DNA of 64,000 bases from Escherichia coli (GTDB lineage Bacteria > Pseudomonadota > Gammaproteobacteria > Enterobacterales > Enterobacteriaceae): assembly GCF_041886205.1 (NCBI RefSeq), contig NZ_CP169029.1. The stretch is one strand, 5' to 3'. Shown here one piece after another: positions 19,776-56,877 of this stretch. The position numbers were made by a program, and so were the translations under genes. Positions within the stretch are counted from its first letter, which is position 1, and each line of letters starts with the position of its first letter. The notes under the pieces are model-generated. The model did not search any database. It saw only the letters and a program-made list of their open reading frames with translations, and was not told the origin of the DNA.

Positions 19776-19803
19776 AGAGCCAGCGCCTGCTGGCTCTTTT
19801 TTA
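19776..19803 (+). terminator. Rho-independent terminator after asnS
   Basis: 9-bp stem agagccagc/gctggctct followed by T-run. Confidence 0.6.
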
Positions 19804-26349: not shown

Positions 26350-26382
26350 CGGAAAAAGAAAAGGCGGCATTGCTGCCGCCTT
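26350..26382 (-). terminator. Rho-independent terminator after mukB
   Basis: Stem aaggcggc/gccgcctt followed on minus strand by ttctttttcc. Confidence 0.5.
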
Positions 26383-43504: not shown

Positions 43505-45178
43505 TTACTCGCCTTTAGCTGCTTTGAAAGCTTCAGCCATTGCGTTGTTGGAGAAGTTTGCATCTTCCTGTTTGTTAACAGTTGCGATTGCATCTTTCTC
43601 GTCAGCTTCGTCTTTCGCACGAACAGACAGGCTGATTGCGCGGTTTTTACGATCAACGCCGGTGAATTTAGCTTCAACTTCGTCGCCAACGCTCAGAACC
43701 AGGGTAGCGTCTTCAACGCGGTCACGGGATGCTTCAGAAGCACGCAGGTAACCTTCAACGCCGTCAGCCAGTTCTACGGTTGCGCCTTTAGCGTCAACTG
43801 CAGTTACTTTACCGGTTACGATAGCGCCTTTCTTGTTCAGAGCAACCCAGTTGTTGAACGGATCTTCTGCGAGCTGTTTAACGCCCAGGGAGATACGTTC
43901 ACGTTCTGCGTCAACCTGCAGAACAACTGCAGCGATTTCGTCGCCTTTTTTGTATTCACGAACTGCTTCTTCGCCTGCAACGTTCCAGGAGATGTCAGAC
44001 AGGTGAACCAGGCCGTCGATGCCGCCGTCCAGGCCGATGAAGATACCGAAGTCAGTGATAGACTTGATTTTACCTTCAACACGGTCGCCCTTGTTGTGGG
44101 TTTCCGCGAACTGCTGCCACGGGTTAGCTTTGCACTGTTTCAGACCCAGGGAGATACGACGACGTTCTTCGTCGATATCCAGAACCATAACTTCCACTAC
44201 ATCGCCAACGTTAACAACTTTGGACGGGTGGATGTTTTTGTTGGTCCAATCCATTTCGGAAACGTGTACCAGGCCTTCAACGCCTTCTTCGATTTCAACG
44301 AAGCAGCCGTAGTCGGTCAGGTTGGTCACGCGACCAGTCAGTTTGGTACCTTCCGGATAACGTTTAGCGATAGCTACCCACGGATCTTCGCCCAGCTGTT
44401 TCAGGCCCAGGGATACACGGGTACGTTCGCGGTCGAACTTCAGCACTTTAACAGTGATTTCGTCGCCCACGTTGACGATTTCGCTCGGATGCTTAACGCG
44501 TTTCCAGGCCATGTCAGTGATGTGCAGCAGGCCGTCAACGCCGCCCAGATCAACGAATGCACCGTAGTCAGTGAGGTTCTTAACGATACCTTTAACTTCC
44601 ATGCCTTCCTGCAGGTTTTCCAGCAGCTGATCGCGCTCTGCGCTGTTTTCGGATTCGATAACGGCACGACGAGAAACAACAACGTTGTTGCGCTTCTGAT
44701 CCAGCTTGATTACTTTAAATTCAAGCTCTTTGCCTTCCAGGTGCAGAGTGTCACGCACCGGACGAACGTCTACCAGAGAACCTGGCAGGAACGCACGAAT
44801 ACCGTTCAGCTCAACAGTGAAGCCGCCCTTAACTTTGCCGTTGATAACACCGGTAACAGTTTCAGCATCTTCGTAAGCTTTTTCCAGCGTGATCCAGGCT
44901 TCGTGACGTTTAGCTTTCTCACGGGACAGCAGAGTTTCACCGAAGCCGTCTTCTACTGCGTCCAGAGCAACGTCAACTTCGTCACCTACCTGGATTTCCA
45001 GCTCGCCCTGGGCGTTTTTGAACTGCTCAGCCGGGATGGCGGACTCAGATTTCAGACCAGCGTCAACCAGTACTACGTCTTTGTCGATAGCAACAACAAC
45101 GCCACGAACGATAGAACCCGGGCGGGTTTCGATTTCTTTTAAGGACTCTTCAAAGAGTTGAGCAAAAGATTCAGTCAT
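43505..45178 (-). CDS. rpsA: 30S ribosomal protein S1
   Basis: 557-aa ORF with six S1 repeats; [26 protein letters not shown]... Confidence 0.98.
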
Positions 45179-45288
45179 GTTTAATCTTCAGGTTTATATT
45201 TAACGTCCACCTGGCTCCATGCCGGATGGGGTTGTTTAACATACCCGCTGTCATTCCATTGCAACGGGGGTACTGCAAATTCGGTCGC

Positions 45289-45972
45289 TTATGCGAGAGC
45301 CAATTTCTGGCGCGCGTATTGTAGCGCTTTTTCAATCACTTGCTCAATGCTTAAGGTGGTGGAATCCAACACTAAAGCATCGGCTGCCGGAACCAGTGGC
45401 GCTACCGCTCGGTTACGATCGCGGTCGTCGCGTTCTTTGATCTCGGCCAAAAGGCGCTCAAAGTTAACACTAAAGCCCTTCTCCTGCAACTGTAGCATGC
45501 GGCGATGCGCACGTTCTTCCGAGGAGGCGTCAAGGAAAATTTTCACTGGCGCATCAGGGAATACCACCGTTCCCATGTCGCGGCCATCGGCAATCAGGCC
45601 TGGTAATTCGCGAAACGCGCGTTGGCGACGCAATAATGCTTCACGAACGCGTGGGAATGCCGCGACTTGTGAAGCTGCATTCGCCACTTCCTGAGTACGA
45701 ATTTCGCCGCTGACATCTTCCCCTTCGAGGATCACTTCCAGATTGCCATTGGTCGACACAAAACGTACATCCAGATGGGATGCCAGCGGCACCAGCGCAT
45801 CTTCCGATGCAACATCAACATGGTGATGTAAAGCCGCCAGTGCCAGTACGCGATAAATTGCACCCGAGTCCAGCAGATGCCATTGCAACGCTTCCGCCAT
45901 AGCCTTACACAAGGTGCCTTTCCCTGCACCGCTTGGGCCATCAATGGTAATAACCGGGGCAATTGCCGTCAT
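45289..45972 (-). CDS. cmk: Cytidylate kinase
   Basis: 227-aa ORF with P-loop (GPSGAGKGT). Confidence 0.95.
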
Positions 45973-46144
45973 CTTTATCTCCTTAAAACAGGCGTACCGT
46001 TAACATAACCGCGCGCATTATACGCGCCGACGCCACAAATCGTTAACGTTGTGTGCAAAAACCAGTTTTGTCTGTATTCAGATGGGGATTTATTGCGCAA
46101 TTATAGCGGGCTGGCAGAAGACCAGCCCGAAAGATGACAATGAT

Positions 46145-46909
46145 TTACTTACCAGAGGCGATACGATCACGGATGTGTTGCGCACGCTCTGTTGATGGTG
46201 GGTGAGAATCAAACATGGACTGGGTACGACCGCCATCCAGGCTGGCCAGTTTTTCAAAGCTGCCAACCAGCCCCTGGGTGCTGATGCCACGTTTCTTCAA
46301 CAGATCAAAGGAGAAATCATCTGCTTCGGACTCTTTATCGCGGGAGTATTTAGCATTGATAGCGCCTTCTGCGATATCACCCAATTGTGAGCGGGAAAGC
46401 TGGGAAGCCACACCACTGGTAGCTGAAATGGCATCGCGTGCGGCAACGATCGCATAAGAAGCTTTCATTTCAGCCAGCGAGTGACCCAACGCGACGTGGC
46501 CCAGTTCATGGCCCAGAACACCTTCAATTTCGTTGTCATTCATCATGTCCATCAGGCCACTGTAGACACGAACACAGCCGTTCGCCATCGCCCATGCGTT
46601 GACGTCGCTGGTCATATAAACCTTATAGTTGACCGGCGTGCCATTAATATTGTTACCCAATGCTTTGGCGATTTTTGCCAGACGTTTACCGTACTTGCTG
46701 GATTTACTTGCGACTTGATTGCCGCTGTCCATTTCGGCACAGCCCTGATTGGCAATCGCTTTTGCATCGGCATCGCTTAATGTTGCTGCTTTATAGGCAT
46801 TTAAACCGGAGCTGATAGCCATATTGGTATCAATACCGTGGGTATTTTGACACCCTGTCAGTAATGCTGCAGAGGTCGCAATCGCCAGCAGTAATTTAGT
46901 ATTCTTCAT
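46145..46909 (-). CDS. ycaL: M48-family metallopeptidase lipoprotein YcaL
   Basis: ORF 46145..46933; start at ATG 46909 (MKNTKLLLAIATSAALLTGC lipobox), 254 aa; HEXXH motif (HELGHVALGH). Confidence 0.85.
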   Translation of the reverse strand: MKNTKLLLAIATSAALLTGCQNTHGIDTNMAISSGLNAYKAATLSDADAKAIANQGCAEMDSGNQVASKSSKYGKRLAKIAKALGNNINGTPVNYKVYMTSDVNAWAMANGCVRVYSGLMDMMNDNEIEGVLGHELGHVALGHSLAEMKASYAIVAARDAISATSGVASQLSRSQLGDIAEGAINAKYSRDKESEADDFSFDLLKKRGISTQGLVGSFEKLASLDGGRTQSMFDSHPPSTERAQHIRDRIASGK

Positions 46910-47077
46910 GTGAATCATCCGTTGATTAATCATATATAAATATTATGTATCAACAACTTACATTGACAAGCGACGCTACCATTAATCAAAATGACTCACA
47001 AGGTCCGAAAAAAAACGCCGACAATGTGCCGACGTTTTGATAAAGAAAGATTTGGCTATTTATTGCCCGTTGTTCAT

Positions 47078-48361
47078 TCAGGCTGCCTGGCTAATCCGCG
47101 CCAGCTGCTCGAAATAATCCGGAAATGTTTTGGCCGTGCATTTGGGATCAAGAATCGTCACTGGTGTATCTGACAACGCCACCAGCGAGAAACACATCGC
47201 CATCCGGTGATCATTGTATGTCGCGATCTCGGCAAAGTTCAGTTTTTCCGGTGGAGTGATACGAATGTAATCGTGCCCCTCTTCTACTTCCGCACCGACT
47301 TTACGCAGTTCTGTTGCCATCGCAAACAGGCGATCGGTTTCTTTAACACGCCAGTTATAGATATTGCGCAGCGTGGTGGTGCCTTTTGCAAATAACGCCG
47401 CCGTGGCAATGGTCATCGCCGCATCGGGAATATGGTTCATATCCATATCAATAGCGTTCAGTTCACCACGCGTGCAGGAAATATAATCATCGCCCCAGCA
47501 AATGGTCGCGCCCATTTTTTCCAGCACATCAGCAAAGCGAATATCACCCTGCATACTGTTACGTCCAATACCGGTCACTTTTACAGTGCCGCCTTTGATT
47601 GCTGCTGCTGCCAGAAAGTAAGAAGCCGAAGATGCATCGCCTTCGACCAAATAAGTACCCGGAGACTGATAAGACTGCCCGCCTTTTACGACAAATTGTT
47701 GATAGTGCTGATTTTCAATTTCAACACCAAACGTCTTCATCAGATTGAGTGTGATGTCGATATAAGGTTTAGAAACCAGATCGCCTTTAATACGAATCAC
47801 CGTATCTTCCGGCGCAAGAGGCGCAGTCATTAACAGTGCGGTGAGGAATTGGCTGGAAACGGAGCCATCAACGTCAACGTTGCCGCCGGTAAAGCCGCCC
47901 TGTAAACGCAACGGCGGATAATTTTCTTGTTCCAGGTAAGTGATCTTCGCCCCGCCCAGGCGCAGAGCATCCACCAGATGACCAATCGGGCGTTCTTTCA
48001 TACGCGGCTCACCGGTCAGCACAATATCATTGCTACCCAGACAAAGAGCTGCCGCCAGCGGACGCATTGCCGTTCCGGCGTTACCGAGGAACAACTCCAG
48101 GGCACCTTCTGCGTGTAATGGACCGCCGTTACCGATAATTTCGCAACGCGTACGATCGGCTGAAAGCGTATAGCTTACCCCTAACGCTGTTAATGCATTC
48201 AGCATATGGCGCACGTCATCGCTATCCAGCAGATTGGTTAATACTGTTTTGCCGTGTGCTAATGCCGCCAGCAATAAAGCGCGGTTAGAAACGCTCTTGG
48301 AACCGGGCAGATTAATAGTGCCATCGACACGAGCGATGGGTTGTAACGTCAGGGATTCCAT
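47078..48361 (-). CDS. aroA: 3-phosphoshikimate 1-carboxyvinyltransferase (EPSP synthase)
   Basis: 427-aa [38 protein letters not shown]... Confidence 0.97.
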
Positions 48362-48382
48362 GAACTCAACTCTCTACAACAG

Positions 48383-48412
48383 AAATAAAAACCCCACAGG
48401 CTGGCTGTGGGG
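48383..48412 (-). terminator. Intercistronic hairpin/partial terminator between serC and aroA
   Basis: Stem ccccacag/ctgtgggg with 5-nt loop followed on minus strand by T-rich run; sits 20-50 nt upstream of aroA ATG. Confidence 0.5.
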
Positions 48413-48431
48413 ATTAAGCAAAATTTCGGCA

Positions 48432-49520
48432 TTAGCCGTGACGGCGTTCGAACTCAACCATGAAGTCTGTCAGCGCTTTAACGCCTTCCAGCGGCATGGC
48501 GTTATAAATAGACGCGCGCATTCCGCCGACCACACGGTGACCTTTCAGTGCATGAAGGCCAGCAGCAAAAGACTCTTCAAGGAACAATTTGTCAAGCGCA
48601 CTGTCCGCCAACTGGAACGGCACGTTCATCCGCGAACGGTTAGCTTTCGCCACGTCATTGCGGTAGAAATCGCTGTTATCAATCACCCCATATAGCAGTT
48701 CTGCTTTTTGCTGATTGATTTTATCCATTTCAGCTACACCGCCGTTCGCTTTCAGCCATTTAAAGACCAGACCAGATAGATACCAGGCAAATGTCGGCGG
48801 CGTGTTAAACATGGAGCCGTTATCGTTGAGGATGGAATAATCCAGAATCGACGGACACGCGATATTCGCTTTGCCCAGCAAATCTTCACGAACGATGACG
48901 ATTGTCAGGCCAGCCGGGCCGATATTTTTCTGCGCGCCAGCGTAAATTACACCATAACGGCTGACGTCAATCGGACGGGAAAGAATGGTTGAAGAGAAGT
49001 CGGCGGCGACCACCACATCTTTGCCGAAGTCTGGCGTCTCGTCGATGGCGATACCGTCGATGGTTTCATTCGGGCAGTAATGCATATAAGCCGCATTATC
49101 AGAGAGTTGCCATTCACGCATTGGCTTAACCGCGCGCAGACCATCAACAGTCACTTTGGCGTCAAAGACATTAGGCGTGCAGTATTTTTTCGCTTCTTTA
49201 ATGGCACTTGCCGCCCAGTAACCGGCATCAACATAATCTGCGGTGGTTTTATCACCGAGAATATTCAGCGGTACCGCAGCAAACTGACCGCGACCACCGC
49301 CATGGCAGAATAATACCTTGTAGTTGGAGGGGACATTAAGAAGATCGCGAAAATCCTTCTCGGCTTCCTCTGCAACCTGAATGAACTCTTTGCCACGGTG
49401 ACTCACTTCCATCACCGACGTACCAAGACCGTTCCAGTCGCGCAGTTCCTGTTGAGCCTGTTTAAGCACCTCTGCCGGTAGCATTGCCGGACCAGAACTA
49501 AAATTGAAGATTTGAGCCAT
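48432..49520 (-). CDS. serC: Phosphoserine aminotransferase
   Basis: 362-aa [36 protein letters not shown]... Confidence 0.97.
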
Positions 49521-49718
49521 TTCCCCTCACCACGTTGCGTTGCTATTAACCCGCGGTCAATCGATTGCGACCACAGGTAATACATTATTCCTGTGGCTAT
49601 CGGTTTTATCATTCAGTGACACACATCGCAATGAGTAAAACCGTTGAGGGCAAAAATGTGGCTTGCATCACACAAAAGAATCTCTCGGATTATTAGCAAA
49701 AAGCCGATGTTTTTACTG

Positions 49719-50411
49719 TCAGGTCACTCGTTTTGCCCGACTTGCCTTCGTCCATTCTGGATTTGCACAGCGCGGACATAATTGTTTTTCCCCCGCTTTC
49801 ATATGAATGATTTCACTACAACGAATACAGGCATAGTCCGCCGACTCCGGCACCACTTTGTAACGCTGCGTACAATCACTGGGTAAAATAAGTAAACCCG
49901 GTTTCACCTTGTCATCTTCAAAGAAATAGACACTGATTTGCCCGTTGGTTTCGAGAATCGCCAGACGTACCTGCCCCAGCTGCTCCACGCCACGCAATCG
50001 TAGCTCCATAAAGAACTCAAATTCCGTCATGTTGGAGTTATTGAGTTTCGACCAGGCCAGCTCGCCATCTTCAATAATAACAACCGGCTTACCTTCCAGT
50101 AGATCTTCCAGTTTTTCACTGTGCGCCATCAACCACATTACCAGGCGGTATAACAACGCCAGAGTGATAAAGACGATAAGTACCGGCACCATCGGCACAT
50201 CATCATAAAACGCCACATCTCCCGCCGCTGAACCCAGCGTGAGAATGATTAACACTTCAAACAGCGACATCTGTCGCACACCGCGTCTTCCGGTCATTTT
50301 GAGGAACAAAAAAACCAGTACAAAGGTATAAAGACTACGTAGTGCAACTTCGCCAAGGAAATCAAAAGGCACTTTATCAAATGCCATACGGTGGAGATCG
50401 AACGCCTTCAT
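49719..50411 (-). CDS. ycaP: DUF421-family inner-membrane protein YcaP
   Basis: 230-aa ORF with N-terminal TM helices; divergent from ycaO. Confidence 0.8.
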   Translation of the reverse strand: MKAFDLHRMAFDKVPFDFLGEVALRSLYTFVLVFLFLKMTGRRGVRQMSLFEVLIILTLGSAAGDVAFYDDVPMVPVLIVFITLALLYRLVMWLMAHSEKLEDLLEGKPVVIIEDGELAWSKLNNSNMTEFEFFMELRLRGVEQLGQVRLAILETNGQISVYFFEDDKVKPGLLILPSDCTQRYKVVPESADYACIRCSEIIHMKAGEKQLCPRCANPEWTKASRAKRVT

Positions 50412-50540
50412 TTTTATGCTCTTATCGTGGTTTATCCGCTAAAAGCATAGTCAACAGTTCATCGGCATGGCGGCGGTGATAGCGCCTTTGAGATAAAACC
50501 CGTATTATTGCGCGCTTTCCGTACGACTAAAGTGATTTTC

Positions 50541-52301
50541 ATGACGCAAACATTTATCCCCGGCAAAGATGCCGCTCTGGAAGATTCCATCGCTCGCTTC
50601 CAGCAAAAACTTTCAGACCTCGGCTTTCAGATTGAAGAGGCCTCCTGGCTGAATCCTGTGCCTAACGTCTGGTCTGTACATATTCGCGACAAAGAGTGCG
50701 CACTGTGTTTTACCAACGGTAAAGGCGCAACCAAAAAAGCGGCGCTGGCTTCTGCACTTGGTGAATATTTCGAGCGTCTCTCAACCAACTACTTTTTTGC
50801 TGATTTCTGGCTGGGCGAAACCATCGCCAACGGTCCGTTCGTGCATTATCCCAACGAAAAATGGTTCCCACTGACCGAAAATGACGATGTGCCAGAAGGA
50901 CTACTCGATGACCGTCTGCGCGCGTTTTATGATCCGGAGAATGAACTGACCGGCAGCATGCTGATTGACCTACAATCCGGTAACGAAGATCGTGGTATTT
51001 GCGGCCTGCCGTTTACGCGTCAGTCCGACAATCAGACCGTTTATATTCCGATGAATATCATTGGTAACCTGTACGTCTCCAACGGTATGTCCGCAGGTAA
51101 TACCCGCAACGAAGCACGCGTTCAGGGATTGTCTGAAGTTTTCGAACGCTACGTGAAAAACCGCATTATTGCTGAAAGCATCAGCCTGCCAGAGATCCCG
51201 GCAGACGTGCTGGCGCGTTACCCAGCGGTGGTTGAAGCGATCGAAACACTGGAAGCAGAAGGTTTCCCGATCTTCGCATATGATGGTTCCCTTGGCGGCC
51301 AGTATCCGGTGATTTGCGTGGTACTGTTTAATCCTGCAAACGGCACCTGCTTTGCCTCTTTCGGTGCGCATCCTGATTTTGGCGTAGCACTGGAACGTAC
51401 CGTGACCGAGCTGCTGCAAGGTCGTGGCCTGAAAGATTTGGATGTGTTTACTCCGCCAACCTTCGATGATGAAGAAGTCGCTGAACATACCAACCTCGAA
51501 ACGCACTTTATCGATTCCAGCGGTTTAATCTCCTGGGACCTGTTCAAGCAGGATGCCGATTATCCGTTTGTGGACTGGAATTTCTCCGGCACCACGGAAG
51601 AAGAGTTTGCTACGCTGATGGCTATCTTCAACAAAGAAGATAAAGAAGTTTATATTGCCGATTACGATCATCTGGGCGTTTATGCTTGCCGTATTATCGT
51701 GCCTGGCATGTCCGATATTTATCCGGCTGAAGATCTGTGGCTCGCGAATAACAGTATGGGCAGCCATTTACGTGAAACGGTTCTTTCGCTACCAGGCAGC
51801 GAGTGGGAAAAAGAAGATTACCTGAACCTCATCGAGCAACTGGATGAAGAAGGTTTTGATGACTTTACCCGCGTGCGTGAGCTGTTGGGTCTGGCGACCG
51901 GGTCGGATAACGGTTGGTACACCCTGCGTATCGGTGAATTAAAAGCCATGCTGGCGCTGGCTGGTGGCGATCTGGAACAGGCTCTGGTCTGGACCGAATG
52001 GACGATGGAGTTTAACTCATCGGTATTCAGCCCGGAACGCGCCAACTATTATCGCTGCCTGCAAACGTTGTTATTACTGGCGCAGGAAGAAGATCGCCAG
52101 CCGCTGCAATATCTGAATGCGTTTGTTCGCATGTACGGCGCAGATGCCGTGGAAGCCGCCAGTGCGGCAATGAGCGGCGAAGCGGCGTTTTATGGCTTGC
52201 AACCAGTAGATAGCGATCTGCACGCGTTTGCTGCACATCAGTCGTTGTTGAAGGCCTACGAAAAGCTGCAGCGCGCCAAAGCAGCATTCTGGGCAAAATA
52301 A
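50541..52301 (+). CDS. ycaO: YcaO-domain protein (ATP-dependent; linked to RimO-dependent beta-methylthiolation of ribosomal protein S12)
   Basis: ORF 50508..52301; start at ATG 50541 (MTQTFIPGKDAALEDSIARFQQKL), 586 aa. Confidence 0.9.
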   Translation: MTQTFIPGKDAALEDSIARFQQKLSDLGFQIEEASWLNPVPNVWSVHIRDKECALCFTNGKGATKKAALASALGEYFERLSTNYFFADFWLGETIANGPFVHYPNEKWFPLTENDDVPEGLLDDRLRAFYDPENELTGSMLIDLQSGNEDRGICGLPFTRQSDNQTVYIPMNIIGNLYVSNGMSAGNTRNEARVQGLSEVFERYVKNRIIAESISLPEIPADVLARYPAVVEAIETLEAEGFPIFAYDGSLGGQYPVICVVLFNPANGTCFASFGAHPDFGVALERTVTELLQGRGLKDLDVFTPPTFDDEEVAEHTNLETHFIDSSGLISWDLFKQDADYPFVDWNFSGTTEEEFATLMAIFNKEDKEVYIADYDHLGVYACRIIVPGMSDIYPAEDLWLANNSMGSHLRETVLSLPGSEWEKEDYLNLIEQLDEEGFDDFTRVRELLGLATGSDNGWYTLRIGELKAMLALAGGDLEQALVWTEWTMEFNSSVFSPERANYYRCLQTLLLLAQEEDRQPLQYLNAFVRMYGADAVEAASAAMSGEAAFYGLQPVDSDLHAFAAHQSLLKAYEKLQRAKAAFWAK

Positions 52302-56844: not shown

Positions 56845-56877
56845 AGCGGCAACTTTATTGAGTTGCCGCTTTTTTAT
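56845..56877 (+). terminator. Rho-independent terminator after pflA
   Basis: 10-bp stem agcggcaact/agttgccgct followed by T6. Confidence 0.65.

Follow-up and report, generated by a model that had tools for sequence, protein, structure and literature searches.

Why does a hairpin with the outward form of a transcription terminator stand between two genes that appear to share one operon? The gap between serC and aroA raises this question in the stretch of DNA analysed here (referred to as the window, 64,000 nucleotides long). A sequence-only reading of the window had proposed that a terminator-like hairpin in this gap gives partial termination, and hence differential expression of a serine and an aromatic pathway gene from one promoter. 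The anatomy of the element, its conservation and the transcription of aroA are discussed in turn here, together with the other functions that such a hairpin might have.

Anatomy of the serC-aroA hairpin

The window is part of the E. coli chromosome, and the 2.7 kb around the site are 100% identical to many E. coli genomes. Matches to annotated E. coli genes placed ycaO and ycaP upstream of the two genes of interest, and ycaL, cmk and rpsA downstream of them. The order serC > aroA > cmk > rpsA is what is left of an ancient proteobacterial ‘supraoperon’, serC > hisHb > aroF[=aroA] > cmk > rpsA, from which the enterics have lost hisHb (PMC1173090). The two genes were identified as follows:

48432-49520, minus strand: serC, first gene of the operon, coding for 3-phosphoserine/phosphohydroxythreonine aminotransferase, 362 aa (open reading frame list and 100% match to annotated E. 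coli serC)
47078-48361, minus strand: aroA, second gene of the operon, coding for EPSP synthase, 427 aa (open reading frame list and match to annotated E. coli aroA)

The stop codon of serC (TAA, 48434-48432) and the aroA ATG at 48361, both on the minus strand, enclose a gap of 70 nt (48362-48431). An 8-bp GC-rich stem followed by a U-run had been placed in this gap by the sequence-only reading, and its coordinates, stem length and gap length all proved right. Specifically, 48383-48412 covers exactly the hairpin and its U tract, which lie 21-50 nt upstream of the aroA ATG, where 20-50 nt had been claimed. In the direction of transcription the gap contains:

48413-48431, minus strand: spacer of 19 nt from the serC stop codon to the stem, unconserved in sequence (entropy of 1.54 bits per column)
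48392-48412, minus strand: terminator hairpin, with the 5′ arm CCCCACAG (48412-48405), the loop CCAGC (48404-48400) and the 3′ arm CTGTGGGG / CUGUGGGG (48399-48392)
48383-48391, minus strand: U tract UUUUUAUUU (TTTTTATTT), beginning at the first base 3′ of the stem
48370-48374, minus strand: aroA Shine-Dalgarno sequence GAGAG, 8 nt before the ATG and within the conserved block TGAGAGTT (from sequence and alignment, entropy of 0.43 bits)

The stem consists of 8 perfect pairs, 6 of which are G-C, closed by a 5-nt loop, and a base C and then a short spacer separate the U tract from the Shine-Dalgarno sequence. Folding of 48380-48415 on the minus strand, a check suggested together with the original proposal, gave −14.1 kcal/mol with a z-score of −3.3, and none of 200 shuffled sequences was equally stable; the hairpin by itself has a folding energy of −13.4 kcal/mol. 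Read on the plus strand, the hairpin precedes AUUAAGCA, and the U tract is absent from this opposite strand. Overall, the element has the components of an intrinsic terminator, with a G+C-rich stem-loop, an abutting U tract, a position on the transcribed strand and a location downstream of a stop codon. By analogy with the general mechanism of intrinsic termination, RNA 3′ ends would be expected approximately 7-9 nt past the stem, roughly at 48383-48385.

The serC-aroA hairpin was the top site in a loose terminator scan of 45000-52000, a scan which returned 16 sites in 7 kb versus 8.0 ± 3.4 in shuffled sequences and is weak evidence by itself. A strict scan was also run over both strands of the 64-kb window, with a perfect 8-bp stem, at least 6 G-C pairs, a loop of 3-8 nt and at least 7 T in the next 9 bases as requirements. 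It yielded 4 distinct sites (5 overlapping matches) versus 0.025 expected per dinucleotide shuffle. The serC-aroA hairpin is not a chance match.

The three other sites found by the strict scan, at 19777-19796 (plus strand), 56846-56869 (plus strand) and 26361-26382 (minus strand), are presumably gene-end intrinsic terminators. A repeated palindrome of the REP/BIME type was considered and rejected, as a search tolerating up to 3 mismatches found the hairpin only once in the 64-kb window. A 130-nt query including the serC and aroA flanks gave a median of 1 match per E. coli genome.

Conservation of the hairpin and U tract

A scan for SerC using one genome per species provided the 80 closest species, all of them Enterobacteriaceae, with SerC identities of 84-99%. 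The genera sampled include Escherichia, Salmonella, Citrobacter, Enterobacter, Klebsiella-group Raoultella, Kosakonia, Kluyvera, Buttiauxella, Cedecea and Siccibacter. In every sampled locus aroA follows serC at a distance of 64-82 nt, and a hairpin followed by a U-rich tract was present in the gap of all 81 Enterobacteriaceae loci. A strict hairpin script scored 78 of the 81, and in the other three (L032, L045 and L072) the hairpin was visible on inspection, with one inner bulge, one mismatch and one weaker U tract among them. In the 78 scored loci the stem measures 7-11 bp and the loop 3-7 nt, the folding energy ranges from −11.7 to −20.9 kcal/mol, the next 9 bases include 5-8 U and the stem ends 29-39 nt before the aroA ATG. 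The distance from the serC stop codon to the stem is 14-21 nt in these loci, with a sequence that is free to vary.

An alignment of the 80 distinct gaps contained 20 variants of the stem and 57 of the loop, and standard pairs nevertheless occupied 99.1% of the stem cells. Compensatory double changes were found in 5 of the 8 stem pairs; for instance, pair 28/43 changes from G-C to A-U in 23 sequences and pair 30/41 from A-U to G-C in 12 sequences. The covariation score was reached by none of 500 shuffles. As a control, the 3′ arm was slid by 1-3 columns, upon which pairing fell to 43-59%, and RNAalifold, unprompted, predicted the identical 8-pair helix. Column entropy was 0.3-0.5 bits in both arms, the U tract and the Shine-Dalgarno block (where gap positions G60 and A61 are invariant), whereas loop and 5′ spacer columns reached approximately 1.5 bits. 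Such a pattern is the mark of selection on a hairpin with its U tract, that is on a terminator, and not on a primary-sequence motif. The description of the element as terminator-like is thus borne out by its canonical anatomy on the transcribed strand and by strong selection on both structure and U tract across 80 species; the comparative data confirm strong purifying selection on the terminator across Enterobacteriaceae.

The two genes serve different pathways, for which independent control would be sensible, and other genes of the aromatic pathway, pheA and trpE among them, are under attenuator control (PMC11878033). The hairpin could accordingly be imagined as the terminator arm of a regulated attenuator, with serine or aromatic amino acids setting the level of read-through by means of an antiterminator RNA, a riboswitch, a T-box, or protein or sRNA control. 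We consider such a switch extremely improbable at this locus. Searching 46500-50500 for Rfam families returned none, even at E ≤ 1, and no leader ORF is present between serC and aroA. The 19 nt that precede the stem are unconserved, and with the serC stop codon a mere 14-21 nt away a sensor would not fit in between. The possibility of an antiterminator, or of another alternative fold, was likewise rejected: when the last 90 nt of serC were included in the folding, the stem retained a median pair probability of 0.99 over 81 loci, with only 2 loci below 0.8, and no competing structure was evident. The element resembles the trpL and pheL leader-peptide attenuators in that an intrinsic terminator precedes a biosynthetic gene, with a ribosome halting at a codon a short way before the terminator. 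Unlike trpL and pheL, it comes without a leader peptide, an antiterminator or regulatory codons, and its upstream ORF is a full-length enzyme gene. The serC-aroA element works like a fixed valve rather than a switch.

Stable 3′ hairpins block exonucleases, and on this basis the element might instead mark a stabilised or processed 3′ end. RNA polymerase would then mostly read through, the bicistronic transcript would undergo cleavage in the gap or within aroA and be trimmed by 3′ exonucleases as far as the hairpin, and an excess of serC-only message would arise from differential decay. RNase protection or Northern data alone cannot tell termination from processing, and the decay of serC-aroA mRNA induced by GcvB is partly RNase E-dependent (PMC11878033). 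However, the abutting U tract, with a major-allele frequency of 0.92 across species, is as conserved as the stem, and a U tract is needed for termination but not for an exonuclease barrier; the overall anatomy is also that of an efficient intrinsic terminator. Although the roles of terminator and stabiliser are not mutually exclusive, we regard processing in place of termination as very unlikely.

Within E. coli, 5425 of the 5426 complete genomes carried the element, every match being at least 95% identical over 130 nt. The 70-nt gap of K-12 MG1655 is identical to that of the window, and one base differs in the 130 nt, within the last serC codons. At window positions 47000-49700, 838 records have a serC-aroA region with an identity of only 90-95%, whereas their 130 nt around the gap match at 95% or more. 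This points to diverged coding alleles, through phylogroup divergence or recombination, next to a terminator region that is nearly invariant. Five of the 5435 serC-aroA matches were found on records labelled as plasmid and some genomes carried two copies; the plasmid-labelled or double matches may be mislabelled contigs, chromids or duplications.

An IS200C element was found in the serC-aroA gap of a single genome among the 5426, that of E. coli P31_YH1_02.21 (NZ_CP085063.1, locus L082, 2578-3290). The element has the orientation of the operon and is inserted directly after the U tract, at window position ~48384 (...GGGGTTTTTATT|gtgcacagaaaaccccc...), and the strain carries another IS200C copy shortly past aroA. 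The left end of IS200 has a strong hairpin of its own, so that aroA expression may be altered in this strain.

Transcription of aroA through the hairpin

Two further features bear on how aroA is transcribed:

49584-49612, minus strand: candidate promoter of the serC-aroA operon, ATGATA-17 nt-AATAAT, approximately 64-92 nt upstream of the serC ATG (from a consensus scan alone, 9 of 12 matches)
47008-47038, minus strand: operon-distal intrinsic terminator, AAAACGUCGGCA-CAU-UGUCGGCGUUUU followed by UUUU, starting approximately 40 nt past the aroA stop codon

In a scan for the sigma-70 consensus, the candidate at 49612-49584 was the sole promoter-like site on the minus strand from ycaP to the interior of aroA. 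On this strand the same scan found no promoter-like site for aroA, either within serC or in the gap; being limited to the sigma-70 consensus, it would not detect weak or alternative-sigma promoters located in serC. Without a promoter-like site between the start of serC and aroA, the latter must be transcribed through the hairpin. As aroA must be expressed, termination would be less than 100% efficient, and expression of aroA would result from read-through past the hairpin. The earlier proposal of a single promoter for both genes agrees with this layout. Transcription of aroA through the hairpin is also indicated by the conserved aroA ribosome-binding site immediately past it, and by the second terminator, which closes the operon after aroA. 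The latter folds with −14.0 kcal/mol and a z-score of −2.4. It is a good A-tract/U-tract hairpin, yet it was missed by the simple terminator scan.

The serC-aroA hairpin looks strong, and a weak or non-sigma-70 promoter in the 3′ part of serC would not have been picked up by the consensus scan; one could thus suppose that the hairpin is the complete terminator of a monocistronic serC unit and that aroA is transcribed from a promoter of its own. This is almost certainly not the case. Only 30 nt separate the end of the stem from the aroA ATG, and neither the gap nor serC has a promoter-like site on the minus strand. Duncan and Coggins (1986) and Hoiseth and Stocker (1985, in Salmonella) reportedly found that aroA needs the serC promoter for its expression and that serC insertions are polar on aroA. 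According to a 2025 paper on GcvB, serC and aroA are cotranscribed (PMC11878033, refs 30-32), and aroA mRNA follows serC mRNA when GcvB targets serC (PMC11878033).

We conclude that the element is very probably a Rho-independent, constitutive and leaky terminator inside the serC-aroA operon, which sets the ratio of serC to aroA transcripts. In the mechanism that we propose, RNA polymerase would start upstream of serC, transcribe serC and then make the G+C-rich hairpin and the U tract. Most complexes would be released at the U tract to leave a monocistronic serC mRNA, whose 3′ hairpin would also shield it from exonucleases. A minority would read through, reaching the aroA ribosome-binding site after another 9-22 nt and continuing into aroA, and these read-through transcripts would stop at the second intrinsic terminator approximately 40 nt past aroA. 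The combination of one promoter and a leaky stop would lead to much more serC than aroA message. A crude codon-adaptation index, with rpsA in the window as the reference, did not separate the genes (0.342 for serC versus 0.324 for aroA), and values this close give no independent sign of different expression.

The serC-aroA operon was reportedly described by Duncan and Coggins in 1986 (Biochem J 234:49). The abstract of Man, Pease and Winkler (1997, J Bacteriol 179:3458) is said to report two major transcripts from the serC promoter, as seen by RNase T2 protection, with 80-90% of the serC transcripts being single-gene, likely as a result of Rho-independent termination between serC and aroA. The cotranscripts reportedly stop close to the 3′ limit of aroA, at a further Rho-independent terminator. 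The two terminators located in the window agree with this description. Actual termination at the site, its partial extent (80-90%) and its Rho independence are taken here from such literature or inferred; the interpretation of the hairpin as a partial terminator with unequal serC and aroA expression is supported.

The terminator is already known, having been described in 1986 and 1997. It is the serC(pdxF)-aroA intercistronic terminator of E. coli K-12, at the same locus and with the same sequence, gene order and proposed role, without any difference; the addition made here is the covariation evidence across 80 Enterobacteriaceae species. A literature search (serC-aroA combined with terminator, attenuator or read-through, and the hairpin sequence) found no paper discussing the element. 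No serC or aroA entry was found in the parts consulted of the 3′-end-map supplements of Adams et al. 2021 and of TERMITe, and although serC is named in papers on Hfq/SdsR and on Buchnera antisense sRNAs, the hairpin is not.

The arrangement is akin to the known case of an intercistronic stem-loop and U tract between cotranscribed genes, in which the upstream product is made in excess and the downstream one by read-through. That system differs in its genes and organisms, and its genes code for subunits of one complex, whereas serC and aroA belong to unrelated pathways (serine and pyridoxal phosphate versus chorismate). In textbook fashion, the leaky terminator would let a single promoter supply two enzymes at different levels, with SerC serving serine and vitamin B6 synthesis and AroA that of aromatic compounds. 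It is of practical relevance to strains engineered in serine, pyridoxine or shikimate-pathway metabolism and to attenuated vaccine strains based on aroA, since the output of aroA responds to changes in or near serC.

Possible coupling of read-through to serC translation

Read-through into aroA could further be tuned by the translation of serC, an idea that we put forward tentatively and hold to be rather unlikely. It arises from the spacing between the serC stop codon and the hairpin, which is held at 14-21 nt (78 species scored) despite the drift in sequence. In the reporter system of Li et al., the ribosome that follows the polymerase partly suppressed a terminator located less than ~27 nt from a stop codon; at 17-18 nt, termination efficiency varied between ~0.12 and ~0.8 in a sequence-dependent manner (PMC4824070). 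If the same were true of serC-aroA, the leakiness of an otherwise strong terminator would be due, at least partly, to ribosome occlusion, and aroA transcription would be coupled to serC translation. Lower serC translation, for example upon pairing of GcvB at the serC 5′ UTR, would then bring about more termination and less aroA. A discussion of such coupling at the serC-aroA locus was not found in the literature search.

The published data on GcvB bear on this idea. An aroA translational fusion was not repressed (124%), while aroA mRNA went down to 40-46%, in parallel with serC (PMC11878033). Coupling to serC translation could explain this drop in aroA mRNA without repression of the aroA translational fusion. 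The explanation given by the authors of that study, decay of the bicistronic mRNA (PMC11878033), fits the GcvB data equally well.
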